A stretch of 24,000 bases of DNA from an uncultured Chloroflexia bacterium (GCA_963774275.1 CAVZEP010000033.1:99954-123953), one strand, 5' to 3'. Counted from the stretch's first letter, positions 3,073-24,000 are shown. Made by a program: numbers and translations. The notes: generated by a model from the letters alone, not told the origin.

Positions 3073-3777
3073 ATGGTAGCGTATTCCCTGTTACCTTTTC
3101 GGGAGGTGCAACGACATATGATTGGTATCACAGCGCAACAGTTCATGTGTAGGATACGTATGCTCAAACTCACCACACTATCTCTGTTCTTGACCTTTTT
3201 TAGCGCTCATCTAAATGGCAAAGCTGCTGACAGCTCAGTCACGAACGATGTTGAGCTGGCACGCCAAGCCGCTGGTAGTCCAGATGCCTTCACCGAGTTA
3301 TATCATCGCTATCTCCCCGGTATCTATCGCTACCACCTGGCGCGCACGGGTCACGTTCAGGAAGCTGAAGATCTGACTGCCCAAACCTTCCTCACTGCTC
3401 TGGAATCTATCCGGAGTTTCCGTGGGCAAGGCAGCTTTTCTTCCTGGCTGTTTGGTATTGCCAGCCACAAGCTGGTAGACCACTACCGCCGTAGCCGCAT
3501 TGAGCTACCCTTGGAAGAGGCGGAAACTCTGCACAGCCCCATCCCACTGCCAGAGGAAGCCACCCTGCAGCACCTGGAATTGGCACGCGTGGCGCAGGTG
3601 CTGCGCCTGATCAGTCCTGATCGGGCGGAAGCATTGGTACTCTGTCTATTTGGTGGATTGAGCCTGGCTGAGGCAGCCAAATCGGTGGGTAAGAGCGAGG
3701 CAGCAGTGAAGATGTTGGTTCATCGAGGCTTAAGTGACCTGCAGGAACGGTTAGCTGCACATCTGGAGGTGGCGTGA
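3073..3777 (+). CDS. ECF-type RNA polymerase sigma-70 family factor
   Basis: Region 2: FTELYHRYLPGIYRYHLARTGHVQEAEDLTAQTFLTALESIRSFRG...SWLFGIASHKLVDHYRR. Region 4 HTH: PDRAEALVLCLFGGLSLAEAAKSVGKSEAAVKMLVHRGLSDLQERL. The start is uncertain: ATG 3118 follows GGAGG, and ATG 3160 is also possible. The stop overlaps the next gene (GTGATGA). Confidence 0.85.
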   Translation: MVAYSLLPFREVQRHMIGITAQQFMCRIRMLKLTTLSLFLTFFSAHLNGKAADSSVTNDVELARQAAGSPDAFTELYHRYLPGIYRYHLARTGHVQEAEDLTAQTFLTALESIRSFRGQGSFSSWLFGIASHKLVDHYRRSRIELPLEEAETLHSPIPLPEEATLQHLELARVAQVLRLISPDRAEALVLCLFGGLSLAEAAKSVGKSEAAVKMLVHRGLSDLQERLAAHLEVA

Positions 3778-5624
3778 TGAACGAAAACCAAAAGCTTCCT
3801 TCGGCCAAAGAGCTTGCTGAGCTGTCCGCCTACTTAGCCGCCCGCGAGCGTGGGGTGCAGCCCGCAACCGACGCTCCTGGTTTTCCAGGCGGTCTTGCGG
3901 GGGCACTGCTCAAGTTGGCTGAAAGCACCGAGCCTGATCCTGATTTTGTTGCTCGGCTGGAGCGAGAGCTTCGCCAGGCAGCCAGGACAGGTGTGCACGC
4001 CTCCCGCACGAGTTGGCTGTCTGCGCTGTGGCAATCATTCTCCCTACCCGAAAGGAAAATTGCCATGAAACGCTTACTTACATTTGCAGTCGTCGGTATT
4101 ATCTTGTTCGTCGTATTGTGGGTGTCGATCCCATCTCTCTTCCCATCCTCCACCCAAACACAGGTGGCACTGGTTACCCCACCCACTCATACCCCCGCAC
4201 CCACACCCCTGTCGCCTCTCACCCCTACCGTGGTTCCGCCCACCTTGCCTTCACCGGTAGCGATCAACTTTACCCCTCAACCCATCCCCGTACAACCACC
4301 TGCTTTACCAGACCTGGTGAGTGCCCTTGGAGCAGGTTATGGAGGGTCGGGTGGAGGTAACCTGCCAGAAGGGTTGCCTCTCAGCCTGGCCACCCAGCTG
4401 CCTGCTGGTCCATCAGAGGTCACCGCTTATTACCGCCTGGAGAATACCCCACTGACCCTCGAAGAAGCCAGCCAGATTGCTGCTAAGTGGGGCCTGGAGC
4501 CAAAGTTGTATATGCCTGGCTGGATGCAGTCTATTTCACCTGACGAGATGGAGCGTAGCTACATCGCCGTGGATGGGATGCAGGCTCTCTCCATATGGAA
4601 CGGTGAGCTGTCTTACACGGACCTATCGATTTTTCCCATCTATGCTGGTCACCAATACCCGCAAATGGGTCTGCCCCCTTCAGACCAGGCAGCTGTGACT
4701 GCCACTCAATACCTGACCGAGCGCGGCATCCTGGATTACCCCTATATAGTTGACCTGAGTGGTTACGATTATGGATTGGTTAATTTCTACCGTCAGTTGG
4801 ACGACCTGACCATCAGTTTTCACGCCGCTTCGGTTAAGATCAATCCGCAAGGGCAGGTAGGCTCAGCCTGGGTCAGTCGGGAGCAGTACCAATCCGTTGG
4901 AACCTACCCGGTTTTGAGCGCCGAAAAAGCCTGGGACTTACTCGTCGCTGGGCAACCCAGTGATCAGCTGTCCATCTCATACTACCCGACTCAAGACGGC
5001 AACCCCCAGTATTGGGGTCGGGTATACCCGGTAGGTCAATCTGTTCACTTGTTTGGCTCTCCTACCTACTGGCTGTCAGCGGATACTGGGGCAATGCCCC
5101 ATGTGCAGCTGAATAACCTGGTGCTGGCAGGAGATGTGTCTGGTCTTATGGAATACCTCCAGGCGAACCCGGGCTATATCCACGCCTGGGGGGAGGTGCA
5201 GGACGTGGATGGCACTCGCCAGCTGCAGCTGGCAGGCTGGGAGCCTTTTGATGAATTCAGTGGCTACTTTGATGGCACCGTAGGGCGTACCGCTGAAGGT
5301 GACTTTCTTGAGCTGGGTGATGGAAGGCGATTGAGCCTGCCCAACCTGCCTGCCGATGTTCCAGACGGCATCCCACTCTACGCTGAAGGGGGACTGGTAG
5401 GTGATAGCCTGGAATGGTTCATCTTGCAGGTTCACACGTCTGATGAAGGGCAGATGCCACCCGACCTGAGCCAGGCTCAAGCGGTAATTGATAAGGTCGA
5501 GCTGGTTTACCTCGCCCCCGGTCTGAGCAACGTGTCCCCCGCATATGGCACTCGACCCGGCTTTCCGCATGCTGTTGCCTGCCTGGAGCTTCTCCGGACT
5601 GATTACCAATGTGGATGGAACTGA
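3774..5624 (+). CDS. Putative membrane-anchored anti-sigma factor with a large extracytoplasmic domain
   Basis: 4-nt start/stop overlap with the ECF sigma gene. ~100-aa cytoplasmic N-terminus, a single TM helix (LLTFAVVGIILFVVLWVSIPSLF), a Pro-rich linker and a ~430-aa external domain with no family I recognise. No ZAS HxxxCxxC motif. The call is by position and topology only. Confidence 0.5.
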   Translation: MMNENQKLPSAKELAELSAYLAARERGVQPATDAPGFPGGLAGALLKLAESTEPDPDFVARLERELRQAARTGVHASRTSWLSALWQSFSLPERKIAMKRLLTFAVVGIILFVVLWVSIPSLFPSSTQTQVALVTPPTHTPAPTPLSPLTPTVVPPTLPSPVAINFTPQPIPVQPPALPDLVSALGAGYGGSGGGNLPEGLPLSLATQLPAGPSEVTAYYRLENTPLTLEEASQIAAKWGLEPKLYMPGWMQSISPDEMERSYIAVDGMQALSIWNGELSYTDLSIFPIYAGHQYPQMGLPPSDQAAVTATQYLTERGILDYPYIVDLSGYDYGLVNFYRQLDDLTISFHAASVKINPQGQVGSAWVSREQYQSVGTYPVLSAEKAWDLLVAGQPSDQLSISYYPTQDGNPQYWGRVYPVGQSVHLFGSPTYWLSADTGAMPHVQLNNLVLAGDVSGLMEYLQANPGYIHAWGEVQDVDGTRQLQLAGWEPFDEFSGYFDGTVGRTAEGDFLELGDGRRLSLPNLPADVPDGIPLYAEGGLVGDSLEWFILQVHTSDEGQMPPDLSQAQAVIDKVELVYLAPGLSNVSPAYGTRPGFPHAVACLELLRTDYQCGWN

Positions 5625-5780: not shown

Positions 5781-6551
5781 TCATGAAAGGGATTTACCGG
5801 GTATGGTCTTAGGCAGGAAGACTGTCCACAATAACATCACTGTGATCAAGCCGAATGTGATCCAGGTGGGTGTCGTAACTGCCCGTACGTCAGCGTGCTT
5901 GATGGCAATTCCGGCCAACGCCCACAGCAGAACCAGCGCATAAGCTATATCTCGCCGGGTAAAATTCATCAAGGCTGCGATCACCAACACGGCGATCAAA
6001 ATAATAGCCATCCAAATTTCCGGGGTTATCCCGATGCCGTCCCATTTCAAGTAATCGAGCACCGAAGTGATATTTGCCACCGTCGCGACTGTAATCCAAC
6101 CCAGGTAGATGCTGAAGGGCACGCGCGCTGCCCATTTCTCAATTGTTGATACCGAACTCCGTCCAATTCCAAGCCCCAGGTAGGTTGCGATCAGTGAGCC
6201 GAGCAGGATCAGCATGGCTACCACGGTCAACGGGAATTGCTCATAATGCCACAGGAAGATCCAGGCGATGTTCGCCAGTCCGCCCAGGGTGATCCACCAA
6301 CCCGTAGCACGCAAGCGGGGATTCTCTCGCTGGGAAGGTAAAACCTGGAAAATAGCGAAGGCAATCAGCCCAAGGTAGATTAAACCCCAGATGGAAAAAA
6401 CATACCCCGCCGGTACAAAATATACCCGGAAACGGTCAGAGATTTCCCCGGTATTCTGGCCGTTAATGGGTAAGGCATTGGCCAGTGTGTTTACCACAAT
6501 GGTAGCCGCTATGGTAAGGATTACAGAGATTTGTCGCAGGATATCTTTCAT
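5781..6551 (-). CDS. Tryptophan-rich multi-pass membrane protein, TspO/MBR-related (long form)
   Basis: ~7-8 predicted TM helices and 12 Trp. The N-terminal block NTLANALPINGQNTGEISDRFRVYFVPAGYVFSIWGLIYLGL resembles the long 'tryptophan-rich sensory protein' family as I remember it. RBS GGGAG upstream. The family call is from memory, not a search. Confidence 0.5.
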   Translation of the reverse strand: MKDILRQISVILTIAATIVVNTLANALPINGQNTGEISDRFRVYFVPAGYVFSIWGLIYLGLIAFAIFQVLPSQRENPRLRATGWWITLGGLANIAWIFLWHYEQFPLTVVAMLILLGSLIATYLGLGIGRSSVSTIEKWAARVPFSIYLGWITVATVANITSVLDYLKWDGIGITPEIWMAIILIAVLVIAALMNFTRRDIAYALVLLWALAGIAIKHADVRAVTTPTWITFGLITVMLLWTVFLPKTIPGKSLS

Positions 6552-6872: not shown

Positions 6873-8174
6873 TCATTCAGAAAGCAAATGTTTTGTAAGC
6901 CAATCCTGGATCACCGCACCCTCCTGTCCAAGATAACGTTCTACAGACTGGCGGTAAGATGAAAAATACTGTTTCACCCATCCGGTTGGGAGCCCATGAT
7001 TCTTAAGTAAGCCAATCAGCCAGGTGACCGCTGGATCTAAAAAAGAAATATCACCCAGTCTCAATGCAGAAGCAATGTATTGGCTGAGATTCATGTTGGC
7101 GACTTCCAAATAATTAGGCTCGATACCCTCATCTTGCATAGCAGAAAAGATATGTGCAATTATGAGTGCCTGATTCTTATTGAACTGCGCCAATGTTCGA
7201 GAATATTCGGGCGAGATTGGCTGAGTTTCCGGTAGGGAAGGAGACGTTACAACCAAGCGCTCGATGATCTGAGGAACCAGCATCAAGTCAGATCCCAGGT
7301 AATAACCAGAAATACACTTGGTGGCGGCAGGAATTTTTGTGAATATTCCACCTCCGAAAGCCATTGGAACACCTTGAGAGGCGATGTTTTCAGACATTGA
7401 GCGCAGGGAGGCTGCACTATTGAGTGTTTGAGCAGAAGAGAGGATTAATATTGGCGAGGTAGCTTGGATGGTGACATCCAGAGCATCGAGAGGCACACTG
7501 GCTCCCAGATAGATCATATCCCAACCACGCCTTCTAAGCAGGTAAGTAATCAACAGAAGGATGAAGTCGTGCGCCTCACCGGGTGGGCATGCAGCAAGGA
7601 TTCGCCCAGGTCGCGCAGGAGGTGTGGAAGAGATGGCAGACAGCAGGGTGTTGATCCTGCGCATGGCGATTGCGGAGGCAAAATGCTCCTGTTGAACGCT
7701 GATAGACCCGGTGTACCAGCCCTCTCCAATCTGTACCAGGCCTTTCCGCAGCACTTCCGTACAGACCGTCTCCGGGGATGCAATCGAGAAAGCCTGATCC
7801 AGTGTTTGGTTGGCAGCCTGGTCGTCAAAAACCAGGCAGGCAGCCAGCCATGCATCACGATGCTCATCGAGCATGGTTCCACCTGAGCCTGAGACCAGAA
7901 GGGGAGCATAGGTTGATTGTGCAGATTTAATTTGGCTTTTTGGCTGGCCCTTCCACATCTCTACTGCACTGCTGATGCTCAAGCCCTCTTTTTGCCTCTC
8001 GATCAGCCATTTGAGCATTTCGATATCCTGCCTGGAGTAAAGGCGATGACCACCGGGAGTCCGCTGTGGCTTGAGGAGCCCATAACGACGCTCCCATGCC
8101 CGTAAAGTTGCCGGGCTTAAACCTACTTCGTTAATTACCGCTTTCAGGTTATAGATGGGAGTATTGTCTGCCAT
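6873..8174 (-). CDS. litR: CarH/LitR-family light-responsive transcriptional regulator (MerR HTH + adenosylcobalamin-binding domain) with an extra ~124-aa C-terminal domain
   Basis: MerR HTH: YNLKAVINEVGLSPATLRAWERRYGLLKPQRTPGGHRLYSRQDIEMLKWL. Four-helix-bundle W-x9-E-H signature: GEGW(153)YTGSISVQQE(163)H(164)FAS. B12 lower-ligand motif: ACPPGE-A-H(202)DF...YLGASVPLDAL, with the H202 codon at 7569-7571. I chose start ATG 8174 (MADNTPIY). The track start 8279 would overlap the upstream gene by 37 nt and adds non-conserved residues. Confidence 0.85.
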   Translation of the reverse strand: MADNTPIYNLKAVINEVGLSPATLRAWERRYGLLKPQRTPGGHRLYSRQDIEMLKWLIERQKEGLSISSAVEMWKGQPKSQIKSAQSTYAPLLVSGSGGTMLDEHRDAWLAACLVFDDQAANQTLDQAFSIASPETVCTEVLRKGLVQIGEGWYTGSISVQQEHFASAIAMRRINTLLSAISSTPPARPGRILAACPPGEAHDFILLLITYLLRRRGWDMIYLGASVPLDALDVTIQATSPILILSSAQTLNSAASLRSMSENIASQGVPMAFGGGIFTKIPAATKCISGYYLGSDLMLVPQIIERLVVTSPSLPETQPISPEYSRTLAQFNKNQALIIAHIFSAMQDEGIEPNYLEVANMNLSQYIASALRLGDISFLDPAVTWLIGLLKNHGLPTGWVKQYFSSYRQSVERYLGQEGAVIQDWLTKHLLSE

Positions 8175-8242: not shown

Positions 8243-9013
8243 TTATACCGGTGCCAGGGTGCCTGCAAAGATGATCCATGCCAGGACGGTCTTGGCAGCC
8301 AGGCTCAGGATGATATACACACGCTCGCCAAATAGATAATCCTTCCAGGGACCGACCTTCTTATATTGCAGCACCATATTCACTGCGAAGATGTTGAAGA
8401 AGACAAACAAGGTGGGGATGATGGCGTACACAAAAGCGGGTGGTTTTCCACCTTCACCAGCCAATGAGCCGATGAAATAGGTCACGATCACAATCCAGGG
8501 GATGATGCCAGCGATGGACCCATAGATGAATGCGGTCCAATTCGTCTTTTGCGTGTTCTGGTTATGGAGCTCCATCATGATTCCGAACAGGTTCATCATG
8601 GCATTGATACCAAAGATGAGTATGATGGCACCCAGGTCATAAATGCCCACCAGCATGCCAATCAGAACGATCATCACAGAAGAGGAAAGCGCATATTCAT
8701 AAAACCGTACTGGGTTCATGCCCTTCTTCAAGTTCGATACGTAAAGCTTGTTCCCGATTGTAGCCAGGAAAAAGTGCGCTACAGCCGAGATTAGCAGAAA
8801 GACCGCCACCGCAGGTCCAAAGCGAAGTTCAGCAGCCAATTTAAGGTCGGGGACCAGGGCCATTTTGGTCAAATCGAATTTCAGGAAGCTGGTATAAATC
8901 GGATAGGCGGTATCATTGCTTAGTACAATCATCAGGATGCCCTGTACCAGGTGTAAAAAGCCCATCACCAGGTTGAAACGGCGTAATCCCTTGAATTTCT
9001 TGTCGTTGTCCAT
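8243..9013 (-). CDS. Heliorhodopsin (retinal-binding 7-TM photoreceptor, inverted topology)
   Basis: By-eye alignment to heliorhodopsin 48C12:
- RFNLVMGFLHLVQ..LSND vs NFNRIAGVFHLLQ..LAND
- VRFYEYALSSSVMIVLIG vs FRWVEYSLSSSVMIVLIA
- GIIPWIVIV vs GIVPWIGLL
- FVYAIIPTLFVFFNIFA vs FVYGIIISLFLFFNSFA
- GERVYIILSLAAKTVLAWIIFAGTLAPV vs GERAYIVLSLVAKSALAWQIFSGTLIPA
Schiff-base Lys is K241 (codon 8291-8293). The counterion Glu is E106, and H21 and H80 are conserved. RBS GGAG upstream. Confidence 0.9.
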   Translation of the reverse strand: MDNDKKFKGLRRFNLVMGFLHLVQGILMIVLSNDTAYPIYTSFLKFDLTKMALVPDLKLAAELRFGPAVAVFLLISAVAHFFLATIGNKLYVSNLKKGMNPVRFYEYALSSSVMIVLIGMLVGIYDLGAIILIFGINAMMNLFGIMMELHNQNTQKTNWTAFIYGSIAGIIPWIVIVTYFIGSLAGEGGKPPAFVYAIIPTLFVFFNIFAVNMVLQYKKVGPWKDYLFGERVYIILSLAAKTVLAWIIFAGTLAPV

Positions 9014-9098
9014 TTTTATTCTCCATTCTACTTATGATTTTTTCCCCAAAAATGTCCCTCGTTTGGTGAATGAGCATTTAGTGGGTATTTATGGTAAA

Positions 9099-9142
9099 TT
9101 GTACATATATTGTATAGTTAATAATAACATATTGTATATATA
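9099..9142 (-). promoter_or_regulatory. Putative CarH/LitR operator: four phased 11-bp direct repeats
   Basis: Read on the minus strand: tAtaTatACAa (9142-9132), tAtgTtaTTAt (9131-9121, degenerate), tAacTatACAa (9120-9110), tAtaTgtACAa (9109-9099). Three of the four fit nAnnTnnACAn exactly. On the plus strand, TTGTAYA recurs at 9099, 9110 and 9132, which is an exact 11-bp register. The array lies 86-129 nt upstream of the heliorhodopsin ATG. Confidence 0.5.
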
Positions 9143-9149
9143 TTGGCAA
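9121..9149 (-). promoter_or_regulatory. Putative sigma70-type promoter of the heliorhodopsin-litR unit
   Basis: Minus strand: TTGCCA (9149-9144), a 17-nt spacer, then TATTAT (9126-9121). The direct repeats occupy the spacer, the -10 and the predicted +1 region. The region is AT-rich, so a chance match is possible. Confidence 0.35.
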
Positions 9150-9302: not shown

Positions 9303-10793
9303 TCAATCCAGCTCAGTCAGCTCATCCATGATTCGTTTTGCCACCAGGCGGGCAGAGATCATGGAGGTCGGGATACCTGTGCCGGGATGAGTGCTTGCGC
9401 CTACGAAGTATAAATTGTGCAAGCGCGGGTGTCGGTTGGAAGGGCGAAAATATCCCAATTGGGTCAAGTTATGCGATAAGCCGTGTGTGGAACCGTTCAC
9501 CAGGTTATATCGTTTACGCCAGGAAAGGGGTGTGAAAGACGTCTCAAATTTGATATGGGCTTCAAGATCTGTTATGCCAAGAGTCCGCAGCCGGCGGAAC
9601 ACGTGTGCGCGTGCCAGGTCTGTCAGGTTATCCCAATCCTGTTCCCCATTCTCAGACAGGTGCCCCACGGGTACGATGGCGATCAGGGTATCTTCACCTG
9701 GGGGTGCCATGGAGGGGTCAAGCCGCGTCGGAGCGTGGACATACAGGCTGGGATTGGCAGGTAGATCAAGGTCACGAATGATGGAATCAAAATTAGCTCG
9801 ATAATCATCCGCCAGGAAAAGGGTGTGTGGACCCAGGGTCTCGTAGGGTTTATCCACGCCCCAAAAGAAACTGATTACTGAGCATGAATAGTTCTTGCGG
9901 GATAATTTTTCTGCCAGGCCATCCATCGGCAGCAGGCTCTGGTATACATACGGCAGGTCGGCATTTGCCAGGAACACGTCCGCCCCCATTTTTAGGTTAT
10001 GTTCAAGTGTCACATCCTTGACGTGACCACTATCGACATTGATCCCCTCCGCGGTAGTATCAAAAGCAAATTCCACTCCAGCCTCACGAGCCAGGGCCAT
10101 GAGCGCATCCACGATGCTGTACATTCCTCCTTTCGGATACCACACCCCATGCGCTAGCTCTGTATACTGCATCAAGGAAAAGGTTGCAGGACCTTCAAAA
10201 GGGCTTAACCCCATGTACACGTCCTGGAAAGTGAATGCCGCCTTTAACCGTGGATTGTCGAAATATGCCGACATGTTGGCATAGTGTTTTACCAATGGTT
10301 TTAGCTGAAAAAGCAGTGGGATATTACCCAGGGAAAAGAATTCGGAAAATCGGCGAAAATCACGGTTGACTAACTTTTCCATCCCCAAACGATAGTGCCG
10401 TTCGCCCTCCTCATGATAGCGCATGAAACCCTGATATGCGCCTGCTTCAATTGATTCCAGCTGATCCCTCATGGATTGCATGTCCGAGGTGAGTGCCAGC
10501 TGGCTGCCATCGTCGAAAACCAGGCGATACGTCGGGTCCAACTGCTGCAGATTGAGTAAATTACTCATCGAGGTACCTAATGCTGCGAATTCTGCTTCAT
10601 AGACTCGTGGCATCACCAGCAGGGTTGGACCGGTATCAAAATGGTGACCCTCACGCTCAATCCAATCACAGCGCCCACCCGGGTTGGGGTTCTTTTCCAC
10701 CACAGTGACATGCAAGCCATGAGATGCCAGGTGGGTCGCTGCGCAGATCCCACCTATCCCCGCGCCGATGATAACCACTGATTTAGATTTCAT
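9303..10793 (-). CDS. crtI: Phytoene desaturase (bacterial CrtI type)
   Basis: N-terminal FAD fold VVIIGAGIGGICAATHLASHGLHVTVVEKNPNPGGRC. FDTGPTLL motif. C-terminal bacterial phytoene dehydrogenase signature NLYFVGASTHPGTGIPTSMISARL. The ATG overlaps the crtB stop (ATGA at 10790-10793). Confidence 0.9.
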   Translation of the reverse strand: MKSKSVVIIGAGIGGICAATHLASHGLHVTVVEKNPNPGGRCDWIEREGHHFDTGPTLLVMPRVYEAEFAALGTSMSNLLNLQQLDPTYRLVFDDGSQLALTSDMQSMRDQLESIEAGAYQGFMRYHEEGERHYRLGMEKLVNRDFRRFSEFFSLGNIPLLFQLKPLVKHYANMSAYFDNPRLKAAFTFQDVYMGLSPFEGPATFSLMQYTELAHGVWYPKGGMYSIVDALMALAREAGVEFAFDTTAEGINVDSGHVKDVTLEHNLKMGADVFLANADLPYVYQSLLPMDGLAEKLSRKNYSCSVISFFWGVDKPYETLGPHTLFLADDYRANFDSIIRDLDLPANPSLYVHAPTRLDPSMAPPGEDTLIAIVPVGHLSENGEQDWDNLTDLARAHVFRRLRTLGITDLEAHIKFETSFTPLSWRKRYNLVNGSTHGLSHNLTQLGYFRPSNRHPRLHNLYFVGASTHPGTGIPTSMISARLVAKRIMDELTELD

Positions 10794-11760
10794 CTTTCCT
10801 CGATTCGGTCTGATAAAGCCACCTGTTCACCTGGCTCTAGTTTCATCCAGGGAAAGTTAGCTATCGAAGTAAAGACCCTCCAGGCTATCCATAAACCAGC
10901 CTTGACGCTTTTTCGTTCGGGATATTCCGGTCGAAGGTAGTATTGATCCTGCTCAATCCTTCTGAGCATCCACTCAAAACGGGCAAGATAAGCGTAAGCT
11001 GCCAGTCGACTGCGCAGGTTTTTAACCTGGGCCATGTACTTCCTGCCACCGCTGAAATAGTGGCGGGCTAACTCCACTCTCCCGAATACCCACTTCCGGA
11101 ACGACAGGCGTGTGCAATTCTGCTAACGAAATCTTCTCTGATTGGATATATTCGCCGGGAATATTGAAATATCCTGCGGATATATCTTCCACTGTATCGC
11201 GCAGCATATGCACCATATGCGCACCGCACACTGCATCGTAACGGGTTTCAGAAATGGGAGGGGGATCTTTGTGACCGATCAAGTAAAACAGCACCTCCGT
11301 CACAGCCGTGGAGAGTAAATGTGTATATTCGGTTAATTCGGCGTGGGAAATAACTCGACCACAGCGTTCCACGTCAAATGCCATCACCTTCATCATATTG
11401 CTTAGATAAAACTGCAGCCCACTGTGTTCTTCCTGATCGTTTCGGACCAAATCCACCAGCATCTGCTCCTCAGGGCTCACATCTCCCGGAAAATTCCCCT
11501 GATAACAAGCCTCCAGAAACGCTTGCTGATGTTGTATCAGGGTGATCTTTTCTTGTTTTGTACCTGAATTGCAGTCAAGAAGATCGTCCAACCATCGAAA
11601 ATAGGCATAAGCCCGAAAAGCATCGTCCACACGCTCTCGATCCGCTAAGAGACGGAATGTGTAATACGTCTGCTTGCTGCCTGCTCTGGTAATCCTGGCA
11701 GGTAAACCTGGCTCCCCCGATTGCGTAGAGTGCTTTGAGCGATATAACAGTTTTGAACAT
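10790..11760 (-). pseudogene. crtB: Phytoene/squalene synthase family gene (CrtB-like) interrupted by two apparent +1 frameshifts
   Basis: Three reading segments cover one family-typical protein:
- MFKTVISLKALYAIG... starts at ATG 11760.
- ...GLPARITRAGSKQTYYTFRLLADRERVDDAFRAYAYFRWLDDLLD...MVHMLRDTVEDISAGYFNIPGEYI is the frame of track ORF 11022-11630, open upstream to 11750 with no ATG/GTG/TTG.
- SFRKWVFGRVELARHYFSGGRKYM...AAYAYLARFEWMLRRIE is track ORF 10790-11077.
The shifts lie at the C5 run 11714-11718 and within about 11101-11120. Confidence 0.8.
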
Positions 11761-12026
11761 ATTTATCAACTTTCCGAATCCGGATTACAAGTATACTCCG
11801 TTAATTATTACGTAAAATGAGTGTGAACGCCTCAGATAAGATAGACATAATGATCGGGGTTACTTCCTGGAAAATAGAGGATTAATCAGCAGGGTTAATC
11901 GATTAGCTGTGGCAGGAATTAATACTCATCATAATTATCATAATAAAGGAAATGATCGTATGAGGCATATGTGGTGGTAAGATTATCTCACTCAACTAAA
12001 AAAACACATTACTACTGGAGGGATTT

Positions 12027-19907: not shown

Positions 19908-21950
19908 TCATTCCGTGCCGGTATTATTTTTCAACACCAATGGGAGGAAAATATACCAATCACCATGGATCACTGCGGTTATGACTGCTTCTCCCATAAC
20001 CACTGAAGGCAATTCAGCGCACTTCACACCATATACTTCGTTGACTATTTCATCCCCATCTGTCAACGTTTGGCTAACCGATACAACCAGTTTTACAGTC
20101 AGACTGCTGGTGGTAGCTACAGTCAGGTTATCCCATTGCACCAGGTCCCCTACCAGAGTGCCACCCGAATCGGCTGAGAAAAAAGTAGTGTTCTCGGGTA
20201 GGGTATCAGTAATGGAGACTGCGGTGGCATCGGCATCACCTGTGTTTTCCACGGTTATCGTGTAGGTTAACAACCCGCCGGCTTCTACCACCGCCACATT
20301 TGCAGTCTTGGTGATATTTAGATTCGGCACAGGCTTATGCACCACTGCGGTTGTGACCGCTTCTCCCATCACAGCTGAAGGCAGTTCAGCGCACTCCACA
20401 CTGTAGACTTCGTTGATAATTTCATCTCCATCTGTCAACGTTTGACTTACCAATACTACCCACGTGACGGTCTGACTGCTGTTGGGGGCTATTGTCAGGC
20501 TATCCCATTGCACCTGATCTCCTACCAGAACACCACCTGAGTCGGCTGAAACAAAGGCAGTGTTCTCAGGAAGGGTATCAGCGATGAAGACTTCGGTGGC
20601 GTCGGCATATCCCATGTTTTCCACGGTTATTGTGTAGGTTAGCAGACTCCCGGCTTCCACCACCTCCAGGTTTGCTGTCTTGGTAATACTCAAATCCGGT
20701 TCAGGCACGCTGCCGCTCGACGCACCCCACGAACTTGTTGAAAGATTTACTTCATTTTCCCGGAAGAGTATTGGCAACGCGAGTACTGAGCCACTATTTT
20801 CTACCACAGCATAATAGATCCCGTCATAACCCTGCCAGGTGAACACCGCGTTATCGTCAGCGTCTCGGGTCAACGAGATGTAATAGTTCTCATTAGATCG
20901 TGGGTTTGTGAAACCAGTTTGCCATACCAGCCTGGCCGAAGACCACCCCTCAAACTCGTGCATTTCCATGATGACCTGGTGAGGGCCAGCCGTGAGTGGT
21001 ACAGAAGCTATCCAGCTATTGCAGCACTCACCCCAATGATCCATGATGAGCACACCGTCAATAAACAAGCGGCTGCCATCATCACTCGACATGATGAATT
21101 GATAGGTATTTTCTGTCAGGGTGATGGTGCTTGTCCAGCGTGCTGAGAAATGGTCGTAGTTAACAGCTGGGTCGGGAGAGCCGCTAAACCATTCAAAATC
21201 AATTGTGCTGTCAGTGCGAGTCCAGGCGGCTGGTTCGGTCAGGGTTTCGTTGTTGTAGTACCGTGCTTCCCATCCCACCTCACCCTGGTTGTTCAGCGAG
21301 AAGAGAATATCATATGAGCTGTCCAGTACAGCATATTTGACCTGCCTGCCCCAATCGGGATAATAACCATACTCTCCCCAGGCGATGACCGTATTTCCAT
21401 TGCGCAGCCCGACCGCGTCGGAATAATCAACATCATAGCTGGACTGGCTCAATTGGGTGATCGGATAAATAATGTCCCCGGCGCTGTCCAGGACGGCATA
21501 GAAGATTTGGTTACCTGTGTCACCACTGCCCTCCCAGGTGATTAGTATGTTGCCATTCTCCAGGCGGTTGGCACGAGGAGCATAGTCGTAACCCCCAGGA
21601 TCATTATTTGTCAGGTTGGTCGGCCCGCTGAGCAGGCTGCCGCTGCTGTCCAGGATGGCATAATAAACATCTTCTATATTGTTTATTTCGACGTATTGGT
21701 ACCAGGTGATGAAAAAGCGCCCATCGCCAAAGGCTGCTGTCGAGGGCTGATAATCTCGGATCGTCCAATTGGTATTAGCTGTTAGTGGGGTAGGTGCAAG
21801 TACCTCCTCACCCGCTGGTCCACGCACAGCATAATAGATATTGTAGAACCAGTTGCCCGTATTATCAGCCTCATAACGATACCAGGCAAGGAGCACATTT
21901 CCATTCGTCTGGGCTACAGAGGGGGAGGGATTATAGTCATAGGTGTACAT
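19908..21950 (-). CDS. C-terminal portion of a giant secreted/surface protein: repeat blades, a PA14 domain and 2x DUF11 repeats
   Basis: ~55-aa blades with the pattern Y-x-P-x-[VA]-A-x4-G-N-x-[LI]-[LI]-x-W ... [IV]-[FY]-Y-A-[VI]-[LV]-D-x-x-G. PA14 (~20919-21275): WEARYYNN...IDFEWFSGSP...DHFSARWTSTITL..TYQF...SDDGSRLFIDG...GPHQVIMEMHEFEGWSSARLVW. Two DUF11 copies (ITKTAN..VVEAG..LTYTITVEN.G.ADAT...TDTLPENT). The track ORF extends to 22145, but residues upstream of M66 (21950) look like out-of-frame junk. Confidence 0.7.
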   Translation of the reverse strand: MYTYDYNPSPSVAQTNGNVLLAWYRYEADNTGNWFYNIYYAVRGPAGEEVLAPTPLTANTNWTIRDYQPSTAAFGDGRFFITWYQYVEINNIEDVYYAILDSSGSLLSGPTNLTNNDPGGYDYAPRANRLENGNILITWEGSGDTGNQIFYAVLDSAGDIIYPITQLSQSSYDVDYSDAVGLRNGNTVIAWGEYGYYPDWGRQVKYAVLDSSYDILFSLNNQGEVGWEARYYNNETLTEPAAWTRTDSTIDFEWFSGSPDPAVNYDHFSARWTSTITLTENTYQFIMSSDDGSRLFIDGVLIMDHWGECCNSWIASVPLTAGPHQVIMEMHEFEGWSSARLVWQTGFTNPRSNENYYISLTRDADDNAVFTWQGYDGIYYAVVENSGSVLALPILFRENEVNLSTSSWGASSGSVPEPDLSITKTANLEVVEAGSLLTYTITVENMGYADATEVFIADTLPENTAFVSADSGGVLVGDQVQWDSLTIAPNSSQTVTWVVLVSQTLTDGDEIINEVYSVECAELPSAVMGEAVTTAVVHKPVPNLNITKTANVAVVEAGGLLTYTITVENTGDADATAVSITDTLPENTTFFSADSGGTLVGDLVQWDNLTVATTSSLTVKLVVSVSQTLTDGDEIVNEVYGVKCAELPSVVMGEAVITAVIHGDWYIFLPLVLKNNTGTE
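19962..20705 (-). repeat. Tandem 2 x 372-bp direct repeat (duplicated DUF11 domain inside the CDS)
   Basis: Copy B (19962-20333) and copy A (20334-20705) align colinearly at the DNA level. Long identical runs include ttcatc.ccatctgtcaacgtttg and cactgcggtt.tgac.gcttctcccat. By eye, roughly four-fifths of bases are identical. Each encodes a 124-aa DUF11-type module. Confidence 0.8.
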
Positions 21951-24000
21951 GAGTGGCGCTGATATTATCAGAGACCTGGATGACCGGGATAACTTGATTG
22001 CCGTCAGCATCATGGGCAGCGTATTCGATATTGTAGTAATAATAACCATAGTCATTGTAGTTCCCGGCACCAGTCCAGGCAGAGATGATGTTTTCACGCG
22101 GGTAGGCAGCCACCGCTGGAGGACCATTCTGATAGGCGTCATCATCCGTCACATTGACTGGGATGATCCCCCCCGGACGAACAATGTCCAGGTATTCTTC
22201 AGGATCATAGAAATAGTTTGAAATCTCATAATCCATGTAAGACTGTACCCAGGGTGACGTCAGTATGGCTGTGCTTAGTGAGGCTGTGTCAAAGATTGTG
22301 GGTGAGGTGACTGAACGGGCATAGATAGTCGCTGCGTCGGAATCGCCAACCTCTACGTCGGCTGGTGGCTCCACCTTGACGGTGAAGATGAATGTCTCTA
22401 GATCTAACAGTAGACCGGTGCTATCGATCTGGGTATCACCGTCCCAGAATGTAGTATTCCATAAATTGCCTTCAACCGACAGGTCGAAAGAGTCTTCAGC
22501 CATCATATAATTGGTCACTGTCTGGGTATAGACGGTGGTTGCTCCGGAAGGGATTAATCTCTCCTGGTATGAGGGGTCGATGGCGAATCCTGGTTCACGG
22601 CAGACGATAAACTGATAATCATAGTAGATTAAATCGTTATTGTCCTGATCATTCAACTGCACATGCACCTGGGTGTAAGTCGGCGGGATGAAGACCTGGT
22701 CAACGAGCAAACCGCTACTGCCATACGATTGTTGGGCAATCATTTCCCATCCGGGGGCTATGGGGTTGTAGCCTAGAACGCTGGCGTCAAGCGTATCGTT
22801 GTCTTGGCTGTACGCATAAATTCTCGTATAAGCAAACTTTTGACCTCCATAGTCGTAGATGTCGTCCAGGTCGCCATAAGTCTCATCCGACCGCCCGCTG
22901 AAGGTGAGCGCAGGGCTGCAGACAGCTGTTGTGTTGATAGTAGCTGTGTCAGAATAAACTGTTGGGGATATGTCTGAAGTAGCCTCAATGATAGCATCAT
23001 CTGAGTCACCATTTGCAGCACCAGGTGGGATGTCCACTGTTACCACAACAGGCACCACCTGCCCATCGGCAAGTAGCCCAGTATTAGCAGGGTCGATGCT
23101 GGTTGGCCAATCGTTGTTTATCAGGGACAGGCTGAAGCTGTCTTCAGAACCTGTGTTGTTGTGCAGGTCGAAGGTGTAGACAGCCTGCTCACCCGCTGGT
23201 TTGATAACTTGTTGTTCGGGTGGCCAGAGCCAGGCGCCATCAGGATAATAGAATTGGACTGCAAAGTCATTGCGCGGGTTATCGGTATATTGGAGATAGC
23301 TATACCATGAAGAAAGGTACGGCATATAAGTATATCCACCATAATAATAATCCCACCAGCTGAAATCACTCGCATAGCGCACCAGGATATCACCGTTCTC
23401 ATAGAGAATGACCTGCGATGTCGTTGTGGTGCCATAGCTATAATTCAAGACATCCTGGTATTGAATGATAAAGCGCTCCGGGCTGCTGATGGTATCTGAG
23501 TAGACGTAGATACTGCCGCTGTCACGATCTATATAGTCCATCCAATAGATAGCGCCAGACGGGTACTGTTGACCAAAAGCGAGATGGGTATAATTGTAAT
23601 AACAGTATAGGCAGTCGCCATAGAGTACGGTTTGGCTGTAGGGGATGCCGTAATAGGGGAAGTTGAAGGGCATCGTGGCAGTATAGTAAGATGAGCCAGC
23701 AAAGTCAACCAGGGTGCCAATCCCACTGATGTCCTCAAATGTGGGGTCGGGACCATCCGGCTCATCAGAGTCAAGAAAGGTATAACCAAAAGCATCCGGA
23801 CCACCCCAGTCTTCCGGAGATACGGAATCGAGGTTTTCTTTCATCATGCTAGGGAGTTCTGCACCGGACGCCAGCATCTTTTGCCAGCCTGGTGGAATAT
23901 CCTCGCCAAAGATTGCTTTTAGTTCTGCCGCTGCTTCAGAACTTCCTGATTCCCTCTCCTGATCAGGTAGAGGGCGCTCACCGGGGTTCACCTCATCAAA
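21937..24000 (-). CDS. N-terminal/central portion of the same giant surface protein (5' end outside the window)
   Basis: The frame is open to base 24000; the track 'M' at 23991 is an internal GTG. Tyr/Trp-rich N-terminal domain. Two Ig-like modules resembling CARDB/NEW3 domains, each built around an acidic DSFxLS strand with a later GDSD motif (...EDSFSLSLINNDWPTSI...GDSDDAIIEATS and ...EDSFDLSVEGNLWNTTF...GDSDAATIYARS). It ends with the first copy of the blade repeat that continues in the next ORF. Confidence 0.7.
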   Translation of the reverse strand, partial: FDEVNPGERPLPDQERESGSSEAAAELKAIFGEDIPPGWQKMLASGAELPSMMKENLDSVSPEDWGGPDAFGYTFLDSDEPDGPDPTFEDISGIGTLVDFAGSSYYTATMPFNFPYYGIPYSQTVLYGDCLYCYYNYTHLAFGQQYPSGAIYWMDYIDRDSGSIYVYSDTISSPERFIIQYQDVLNYSYGTTTTSQVILYENGDILVRYASDFSWWDYYYGGYTYMPYLSSWYSYLQYTDNPRNDFAVQFYYPDGAWLWPPEQQVIKPAGEQAVYTFDLHNNTGSEDSFSLSLINNDWPTSIDPANTGLLADGQVVPVVVTVDIPPGAANGDSDDAIIEATSDISPTVYSDTATINTTAVCSPALTFSGRSDETYGDLDDIYDYGGQKFAYTRIYAYSQDNDTLDASVLGYNPIAPGWEMIAQQSYGSSGLLVDQVFIPPTYTQVHVQLNDQDNNDLIYYDYQFIVCREPGFAIDPSYQERLIPSGATTVYTQTVTNYMMAEDSFDLSVEGNLWNTTFWDGDTQIDSTGLLLDLETFIFTVKVEPPADVEVGDSDAATIYARSVTSPTIFDTASLSTAILTSPWVQSYMDYEISNYFYDPEEYLDIVRPGGIIPVNVTDDDAYQNGPPAVAAYPRENIISAWTGAGNYNDYGYYYYNIEYAAHDADGNQVIPVIQVSDNISATHVHL

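Follow-up and report, generated by a model that had tools for sequence, protein, structure and literature searches.

We analyzed a 24,000-nucleotide stretch of DNA, hereafter the window, from the metagenome-assembled genome (MAG) of an uncultured Anaerolineales bacterium (Chloroflexota; GCA_963774275.1, CAVZEP010000033.1:99954-123953), which carries a heliorhodopsin gene between carotenoid genes and a gene for a CarH-like regulator. The assembly comprises 4.37 Mb in 35 contigs, with a completeness of 97.5% and a contamination of 5.6%. On the minus strand, the order is crtB, crtI, a gap of 289 nucleotides (nt), heliorhodopsin, a 68-nt gap, a regulator with MerR and B12-binding domains, and a membrane protein of 256 amino acids (aa) (Table 1). 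The order crtB-crtI-heliorhodopsin-carH-membrane protein was retained in most members of the genus, for which 21 other genomes were compared (22 genomes in the RPE65 and CrtYcd searches described below), and the gap between heliorhodopsin and carH measured approximately 70 to 80 nt in all relatives.

Table 1. Features of the heliorhodopsin locus, given as positions in the window
Feature	Position	Strand	Remarks
Conserved 256-aa multi-pass membrane protein	5781..6551	minus	Accompanies the cluster in the genus
CarH/LitR-type regulator gene	6873..8174	minus	433 aa from ATG 8174; MerR winged helix-turn-helix, Wx9EH, B12-binding domain, C-terminal extension; 68 nt after the heliorhodopsin stop
Heliorhodopsin gene	8243..9013	minus	256 aa; H21, H80, E106, S237, K241; fenestration residues F162, S166, G169, F206, N207, A210
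Ribosome-binding site GGAG	9021..9024	minus	7 nt 5' of the heliorhodopsin ATG; read from the sequence
Putative CarH-type operator	9099..9142	minus	Direct repeats (DR) in the order DR1-dr2-DR3-DR4; four phased 11-bp repeats TATATATACAA / TATGTTATTAT / TAACTATACAA / TATATGTACAA
Sigma-70-like promoter	9121..9149	minus	TTGCCA-17-TATTAT plus TG extension, 10/12; consensus match only
crtI-family phytoene desaturase gene	9303..10793	minus	496 aa, intact; ATGA overlap with crtB
crtB (phytoene synthase) gene	10790..11760	minus	Two or three frames; shift at 11108, probable second shift at 11714-11718

The open reading frame (ORF) in question runs from an ATG at 9013-9011 to a TAA stop at 8245-8243, and the plus-strand frame over the same interval is packed with stops. 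A first-pass annotation, made from the window alone, had called this ORF a heliorhodopsin with all key residues conserved, alignable by eye with heliorhodopsin 48C12 along its whole length. Profile and structure searches bore out both the identity and the alignment, and the coordinates given for the ORF were correct, the coding strand being minus. Pfam returned a single complete match, PF18761 Heliorhodopsin (338.6 bits, E = 2e-101, profile positions 1-242 of 242), and no match to the type-1 rhodopsin family PF01036, while the NCBIfam heliorhodopsin (HeR) equivalog NF038020 scored 369.3 bits (cut-off, 100 bits). Among solved structures, the best sequence match was the heliorhodopsin TaHeR (6IS6; E = 4.2e-73, ORF residues 5-255 on residues 13-258), and the match to 48C12 (6SU3; E = 5.5e-54) placed ORF residues 5-255 on residues 7-255. 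In the latter, H21, H80, E106, S237, and K241 of the ORF align with H23, H80, E107, S237, and K241 of 48C12, and K241 also aligns with the Schiff-base lysine of TaHeR. The motifs quoted in the annotation (GFLHLVQ for H21, AVAHFF for H80, FYEYALSSS for E106, and SLAAKTVLAW for K241) were exact in wording and numbering. At the sequence level, the protein has everything that defines the family, namely, a full-length profile match, the helix-7 lysine, the helix-3 glutamate, and the pair of histidines, and the ORF almost certainly encodes a full-length heliorhodopsin. Retinal is predicted to bind to K241 with E106 as the counterion, and a sensor-type function is predicted as well.

An AlphaFold2 model, for which the input was a shallow alignment of 30 Anaerolineales sequences (74 to 93% identical), had a mean predicted local distance difference test score (pLDDT) of 53, a low confidence that suffices to assign the fold class but not to judge the geometry of the pocket. 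In this model, DSSP delineated seven long helices, an AB-loop β-hairpin with strands at residues 40-47 and 52-59, and a BC-loop helix at residues 87-96. With Foldseek, heliorhodopsins filled the top eight places among the PDB matches of the model (E = 6e-13 to 3e-07), type-1 rhodopsins appearing only at E values of at least 0.18. Lysines and arginines in the loops numbered 14 on the predicted cytoplasmic side versus 4 outside, which predicts that the N-terminus lies inside, in the inverted topology of heliorhodopsins, as the annotation had expected.

The protein itself is not new, given its thousands of homologs and its conservation across the genus; it is an ordinary further member of a well-known family. 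A large protein collection held more than 7,500 homologs, over 100 of them at least 88% identical to it, and an exact-sequence look-up gave no match. The gene was present in 17 of the 21 other genus genomes at 87 to 95% identity, and its product is the best-conserved protein of the neighborhood within the genus (CarH, 55 to 64%; CrtI, 74 to 80%; CrtB, 52 to 76%). The median pairwise ratio of nonsynonymous to synonymous substitution rates (dN/dS) was 0.036, with dS saturated, and K241, E106, H21, H80, S237, G169, F206, and A210 were invariant across the 30 Anaerolineales sequences. Some genus genomes carry a second copy that is 75 to 77% identical. The context of such paralogs in genus or family members (L050 at G009:C5:33736-34494, L051 at G016:C18, and L048 in G024) differs, being without carH and without the operator array described below.

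The useful point of this locus is its conserved and testable regulatory context, in which a promoter with a putative CarH-type operator would drive heliorhodopsin and then carH. Known CarH operators are built as DR-dr-DR-DR over the -35/-10 region, from tandem 11-bp repeats of the form nnnnTnnACAn (PMC9304148). Within the 289-nt gap upstream of heliorhodopsin there is only one good promoter match, and it is overlapped by a repeat array lying 85 nt before the heliorhodopsin ATG. Three of its four repeats fit nnnnTnnACAn, and the -10 box falls within the second, a pseudorepeat; the CarH operator of Bacillus megaterium likewise has three DRs and one pseudorepeat over -35/-10 (PMC9304148). A search of both strands of the genome for three or more out of four phased nAnnTnnACAn repeats returned this array alone, the expectation by chance being approximately 0.02 such sites per genome (calculated from the single-repeat frequency). 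Sites with two repeats numbered 12, versus approximately 6 expected, and lay beside unrelated genes. Equivalent arrays were found 40 to 100 nt before the start codon of orthologs, where 21 of 24 upstream regions scored at least 15/20, and only 1 of approximately 75 more distant Anaerolineales heliorhodopsins reached an equal score. The 68-nt gap between heliorhodopsin and carH is free of terminators, and its folding is less stable than that of shuffled sequence; the two genes are predicted to be cotranscribed, with heliorhodopsin as the first cistron.

The regulator encoded downstream is the only protein in the genome that combines MerR and B12-binding domains, and the genome also encodes a PduO-type adenosyltransferase. 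Its MerR-type winged helix was matched by PF13411 and PF00376 and has RAWERRY at residues 25-31, where RxWERRY is the recognition-helix motif of CarH (PMC9304148). The Wx9EH motif of the four-helix bundle, which sets adenosylcobalamin-dependent CarH apart from CarA-like proteins, is present as WYTGSISVQQEH at residues 153-164, with a match to PF02607. The classic B12-binding motif is D/ExHx2G/P...SxT/V...GG; in the B12 region of the regulator (PF02310, 35.3 bits), EAHDFI, with Ile for Gly/Pro, is followed by SAQ 41 residues on and by GG 24 residues further. The system agrees with class I CarH in three of four sequence-level tests (the winged helix, Wx9EH, and the operator repeats), the B12 motif being atypical. 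Class I CarH/LitR proteins of Thermus thermophilus, B. megaterium, and Myxococcus xanthus have in common with it the RxWERRY-type MerR domain, Wx9EH, and the B12-binding Rossmann module; it differs from them in its ExHxxI sequence, its equivalog score below the cut-off, and approximately 120 to 140 extra residues at the C-terminus. This extension (window 6873-7290), which lies past the B12 domain, had no match in Pfam or NCBIfam and is kept in genus orthologs, whose alignments reach residue 428 or so of 433. Like carH in the Myxococcus operon, the gene closes the putatively regulated unit, and the system departs from known ones in that its predicted target is heliorhodopsin rather than the carotenoid genes, with no operator before crtB.

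We consider it likely that this locus encodes a retinal-loaded, sensor-type heliorhodopsin under dark repression by adenosylcobalamin-bound CarH, with release by light. The heliorhodopsin would have seven helices and a cytoplasmic N-terminus and would carry retinal on K241 with E106 as the counterion. In the dark, adenosylcobalamin-bound CarH made from the downstream gene would repress the heliorhodopsin-carH promoter, and UV-to-green light would release it from the promoter, so that the retinal sensor and more CarH would be made only in the light. Heliorhodopsin is thus probably light-induced. If this is true, the retinal sensor is made only after the B12 sensor has seen light, which would place heliorhodopsin in a light-stress response. 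The natural role of heliorhodopsins is largely unknown, and few partners have been shown. The role of a sensor-type heliorhodopsin has likewise been hinted at by a cotranscribed neighbor in the AbHeR-glutamine synthetase operon (PMC9529153), whereas the neighbor in the present case is a transcription factor whose putative operator overlaps the promoter of heliorhodopsin. Known neighbors of heliorhodopsins include carotenoid genes and "cobalamin-binding proteins" (PMC8612252; 10.1101/2021.02.16.431466), and in the library searched we found no paper pairing "heliorhodopsin" with "CarH." A more elaborate circuit with two photoreceptors can be imagined, in which B12 photolysis first induces heliorhodopsin and the membrane-bound heliorhodopsin, when illuminated, in turn influences CarH, for instance by binding its genus-specific C-terminal extension. 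We regard such feedback as a long shot; if it is true, a transcription factor would be the long-sought signaling partner of heliorhodopsin.

Several observations weigh against the proposed regulation. The B12 motif of the regulator is ExHxxI instead of ExHxxG/P, and its score with the NCBIfam CarH equivalog was 148 bits, below the cut-off of 400 bits. No CarH operator was found 5' of crtB in the source genome or its genus relatives (best scores, 9 to 11 of 16); carotenogenesis, the classic CarH target, therefore seems to lie outside CarH control here. Two genus members (L040 and L052) have an operator-like array without an adjacent carH. Other limits of the overall reading are the low confidence of the structural model and, for the supply of retinal, a blh search that lacked a positive control in a MAG whose completeness and contamination are as given above. 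The operator could also serve the autoregulation of carH alone, with heliorhodopsin as a passenger or under a promoter of its own. The autoregulation of carH is common, and the two arrays without an adjacent carH have been counted in favor of this reading. However, the array lies upstream of heliorhodopsin and over the sole good promoter match in the gap, the short intergenic distance without a terminator is kept in all relatives, and any transcript from the operator promoter must cover heliorhodopsin first, all of which make autoregulation of carH alone very unlikely.

The first-pass annotation had noted that the adjacent crtB looks broken, and this is so in the assembly as it stands. Compared with the intact 322-aa ortholog of the genus relative G018, two frames of crtB join exactly at 11109/11107, indicating one extra base at 11108. 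Farther upstream, the conserved N-terminus (LPARITRAGSKQTYY) lies in a frame without ATG, GTG, or TTG, and joining it in frame to the ATG at 11760 requires the G5 run at 11714-11718 to be one base shorter. The gene is intact in relatives (321 to 332 aa), and a metagenome scan with the N-terminal half of CrtB found only relatives, 52 to 55% identical. Decay of the gene, with loss of carotenoid synthesis in this lineage, would be in line with two frame disruptions within one gene of 970 nt, with the lack of any other SQS_PSY gene in the genome, and with the clear decay of crt genes in another genus member, G008. Frame changes, however, run through the whole assembly: among the 201 G018 ORFs of 150 aa or more with an ortholog in the source genome, 26 changed frame (approximately 12%), several of them twice and many with 80 to 95% identity on both sides, and 3 of 28 did so on the contig of the window itself. 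The reciprocal test gave a similar figure for G018, a long-read relative, with 16 of 172 genes changing frame (approximately 9%). Neither half of crtB has an internal stop, its dN/dS versus G018 was 0.08, and the downstream crtI is intact and linked to it by the ATGA overlap. Given the genome-wide frame changes and the purifying selection on crtB, we favor an error of long-read assembly, and the break is very probably an assembly indel, a true pseudogene being improbable. With frame changes in about one gene in eight, it would be an over-reading to infer loss of the pathway from the broken crtB. As the frame changes are spread over the genome (e.g., C30, C5, and C33), any pseudogene call in this MAG needs read support.

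The annotation had also pointed out that no blh or crtY-type gene is visible in the window, correctly so, and had asked how the chromophore is supplied. This question is real for the genome as a whole, where the known retinal genes were not found, but it is generic to organisms with heliorhodopsin as the only rhodopsin rather than specific to this locus. No RPE65-type carotenoid oxygenase and no heterodimeric CrtYcd cyclase were present in the source genome or in any of the 22 genus genomes, with positive controls in both searches. The sole match to PF05834, at C9:362663, was rejected as a lycopene cyclase, since it is geranylgeranyl-reductase-like and the match covers only its Rossmann N-terminus. 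Neither PF15461 nor TIGR03753 detected blh/Brp in the genome, a weak negative because PF15461 was silent in the controls too, and the same held for PF15461 in 201 genomes of the order and 351 of the phylum, where control genomes were also silent. The argument that retinal genes are missing therefore leans on the cyclases and RPE65. A search for type-1 rhodopsins with PF01036 found none in the genome, its control also being silent. From crtB and crtI, acyclic carotenoids at most are to be expected. The genome has a second carotenoid-type cluster at C9:359430-363163, with genes for a 4Fe-4S (ferredoxin)-fused amine-oxidase/CrtI-like protein (538 aa), a CruF-like membrane protein with a Caroten_synth domain (PF04240; 290 aa), and a geranylgeranyl-reductase-like protein (394 aa), which may modify the acyclic carotenoids made by crtB and crtI. 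The lack of a known retinal pathway is the published, family-wide situation: blh co-occurs with heliorhodopsin mainly where another rhodopsin exists (10.1101/2021.02.16.431466), and a full retinal pathway was found in only 1 of 381 heliorhodopsin-only genomes (10.1101/2021.02.01.429150). For TaHeR, the uptake of exogenous retinal via a lateral fenestration has been postulated (PMC9385722), and all fenestration residues (F162, S166, G169, F206, N207, and A210) are present here. With no recognizable route to retinal in the genome, the chromophore most likely comes from the surroundings through this fenestration, or else by an unknown route.

The position of crtB and crtI immediately 5' of heliorhodopsin in the same orientation, a synteny shared by most genus members, nevertheless brings two other readings into view. 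In one of them, an unrecognized endogenous pathway would cyclize and cleave the lycopene formed by crtB and crtI, or would form an acyclic retinal analog from it by cleavage alone. Besides the synteny, the second carotenoid-type cluster speaks for this reading, as does a bacterium that builds functional rhodopsins without known retinal genes (PMC7734400, as cited in 10.1101/2021.02.16.431466). It is at odds with the lack of cyclases and oxygenases of the known RPE65 and CrtYcd families in the genus and with crtB not sharing the CarH-type operator. Moreover, in G008 (L035 3500-4310), only fragments of crtB and crtI are left beside an intact heliorhodopsin and carH, and in G005 (L040), heliorhodopsin has an operator-like array with neither carH nor crt genes adjacent to it. 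These two genomes indicate that heliorhodopsin does not depend on adjacent crt genes, and we consider an endogenous pathway unlikely. In the other reading, heliorhodopsin would hold two chromophores, with a carotenoid antenna in the fenestration supplied by the adjacent crt genes. All six residues of the proposed binding site are present, with S166 in the place of a cysteine in 48C12, and the crt genes do adjoin heliorhodopsin. The proposal, however, comes from a single preprint that compared structures and used docking (10.1101/2025.11.27.691015) and that favors exogenous, ring-bearing xanthophylls, whereas the source genome, being without a cyclase, would yield acyclic carotenoids. With 91% of heliorhodopsins claimed to have the site, it is also not specific to the present protein. 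Considering in addition the decay of the crt genes in G008, an antenna supplied by the neighboring genes appears unlikely as well, and retinal from the surroundings or by an unknown route stays the preferred explanation.

Of the heliorhodopsins with solved structures, the closest in sequence is TaHeR of the Thermoplasmatales archaeon SG8-52-1 (6IS6, 7CLJ, and 7U55), with approximately 47 to 49% identity over the full length. The two have in common the lysine, glutamate, and both histidines, the AB-loop hairpin, and the fenestration, and the host of TaHeR is likewise without retinal synthesis (PMC9385722). TaHeR differs in its archaeal host, in a helix 5-6 loop that is five residues shorter, and in that a CarH context has not been reported for it. 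The founding heliorhodopsin, 48C12 (6SU3 and 6UH3), is approximately 43% identical over the full length, and its K241, E107, H23, H80, and S237, as well as the fenestration, are matched in the present protein. By the grouping of 10.1101/2021.02.16.431466, applied without a tree, 48C12 falls into the actinobacterial "group A," and the present protein goes with the more diverse group B, which includes TaHeR and BcHeR. BcHeR, from Bellilinea caldifistulae (Anaerolineae), comes from the same class as the present host and has been characterized photochemically. Heliorhodopsins of MAGs labeled Bellilinea, which are not BcHeR itself, are 75 to 77% identical to the present one, and the Bellilinea-type loci differ in having no adjacent carH.

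Several further features of the neighborhood were recorded. In many relatives, a secreted protein of 631 to 666 aa is encoded between crtI and the heliorhodopsin promoter (L033:4738-6633, L034:4557-6557, L036, L043, and L046); this insertion is absent from the source genome, G018, and G015. Upstream of crtB, an element like GGTATACTTG is conserved (window positions 11795-11810 or so; L033, L034, and L046). Distinct from a CarH repeat array, it may be the crtB promoter or a site for another regulator. An Rfam search of the window matched no riboswitch or other RNA. The 256-aa membrane protein at the end of the cluster had no Pfam or NCBIfam match even at E values of up to 1, and a TspO/CrtK-like label considered for it was dropped, as profile searches gave it no support. 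Frame changes may affect other genes of the window as well. A 616-aa ORF at 3774-5624, coupled to an extracytoplasmic function (ECF) sigma factor, shows a frame change near its 3' end (positions 5527-5560, approximately) compared with its G018 ortholog. Two surface-protein ORFs of 745 and 684 aa (DUF11, PA14, and Ig-like domains) run in the same direction, share 209 nt at 21937-22145, and may be a single gene split by a frame change.

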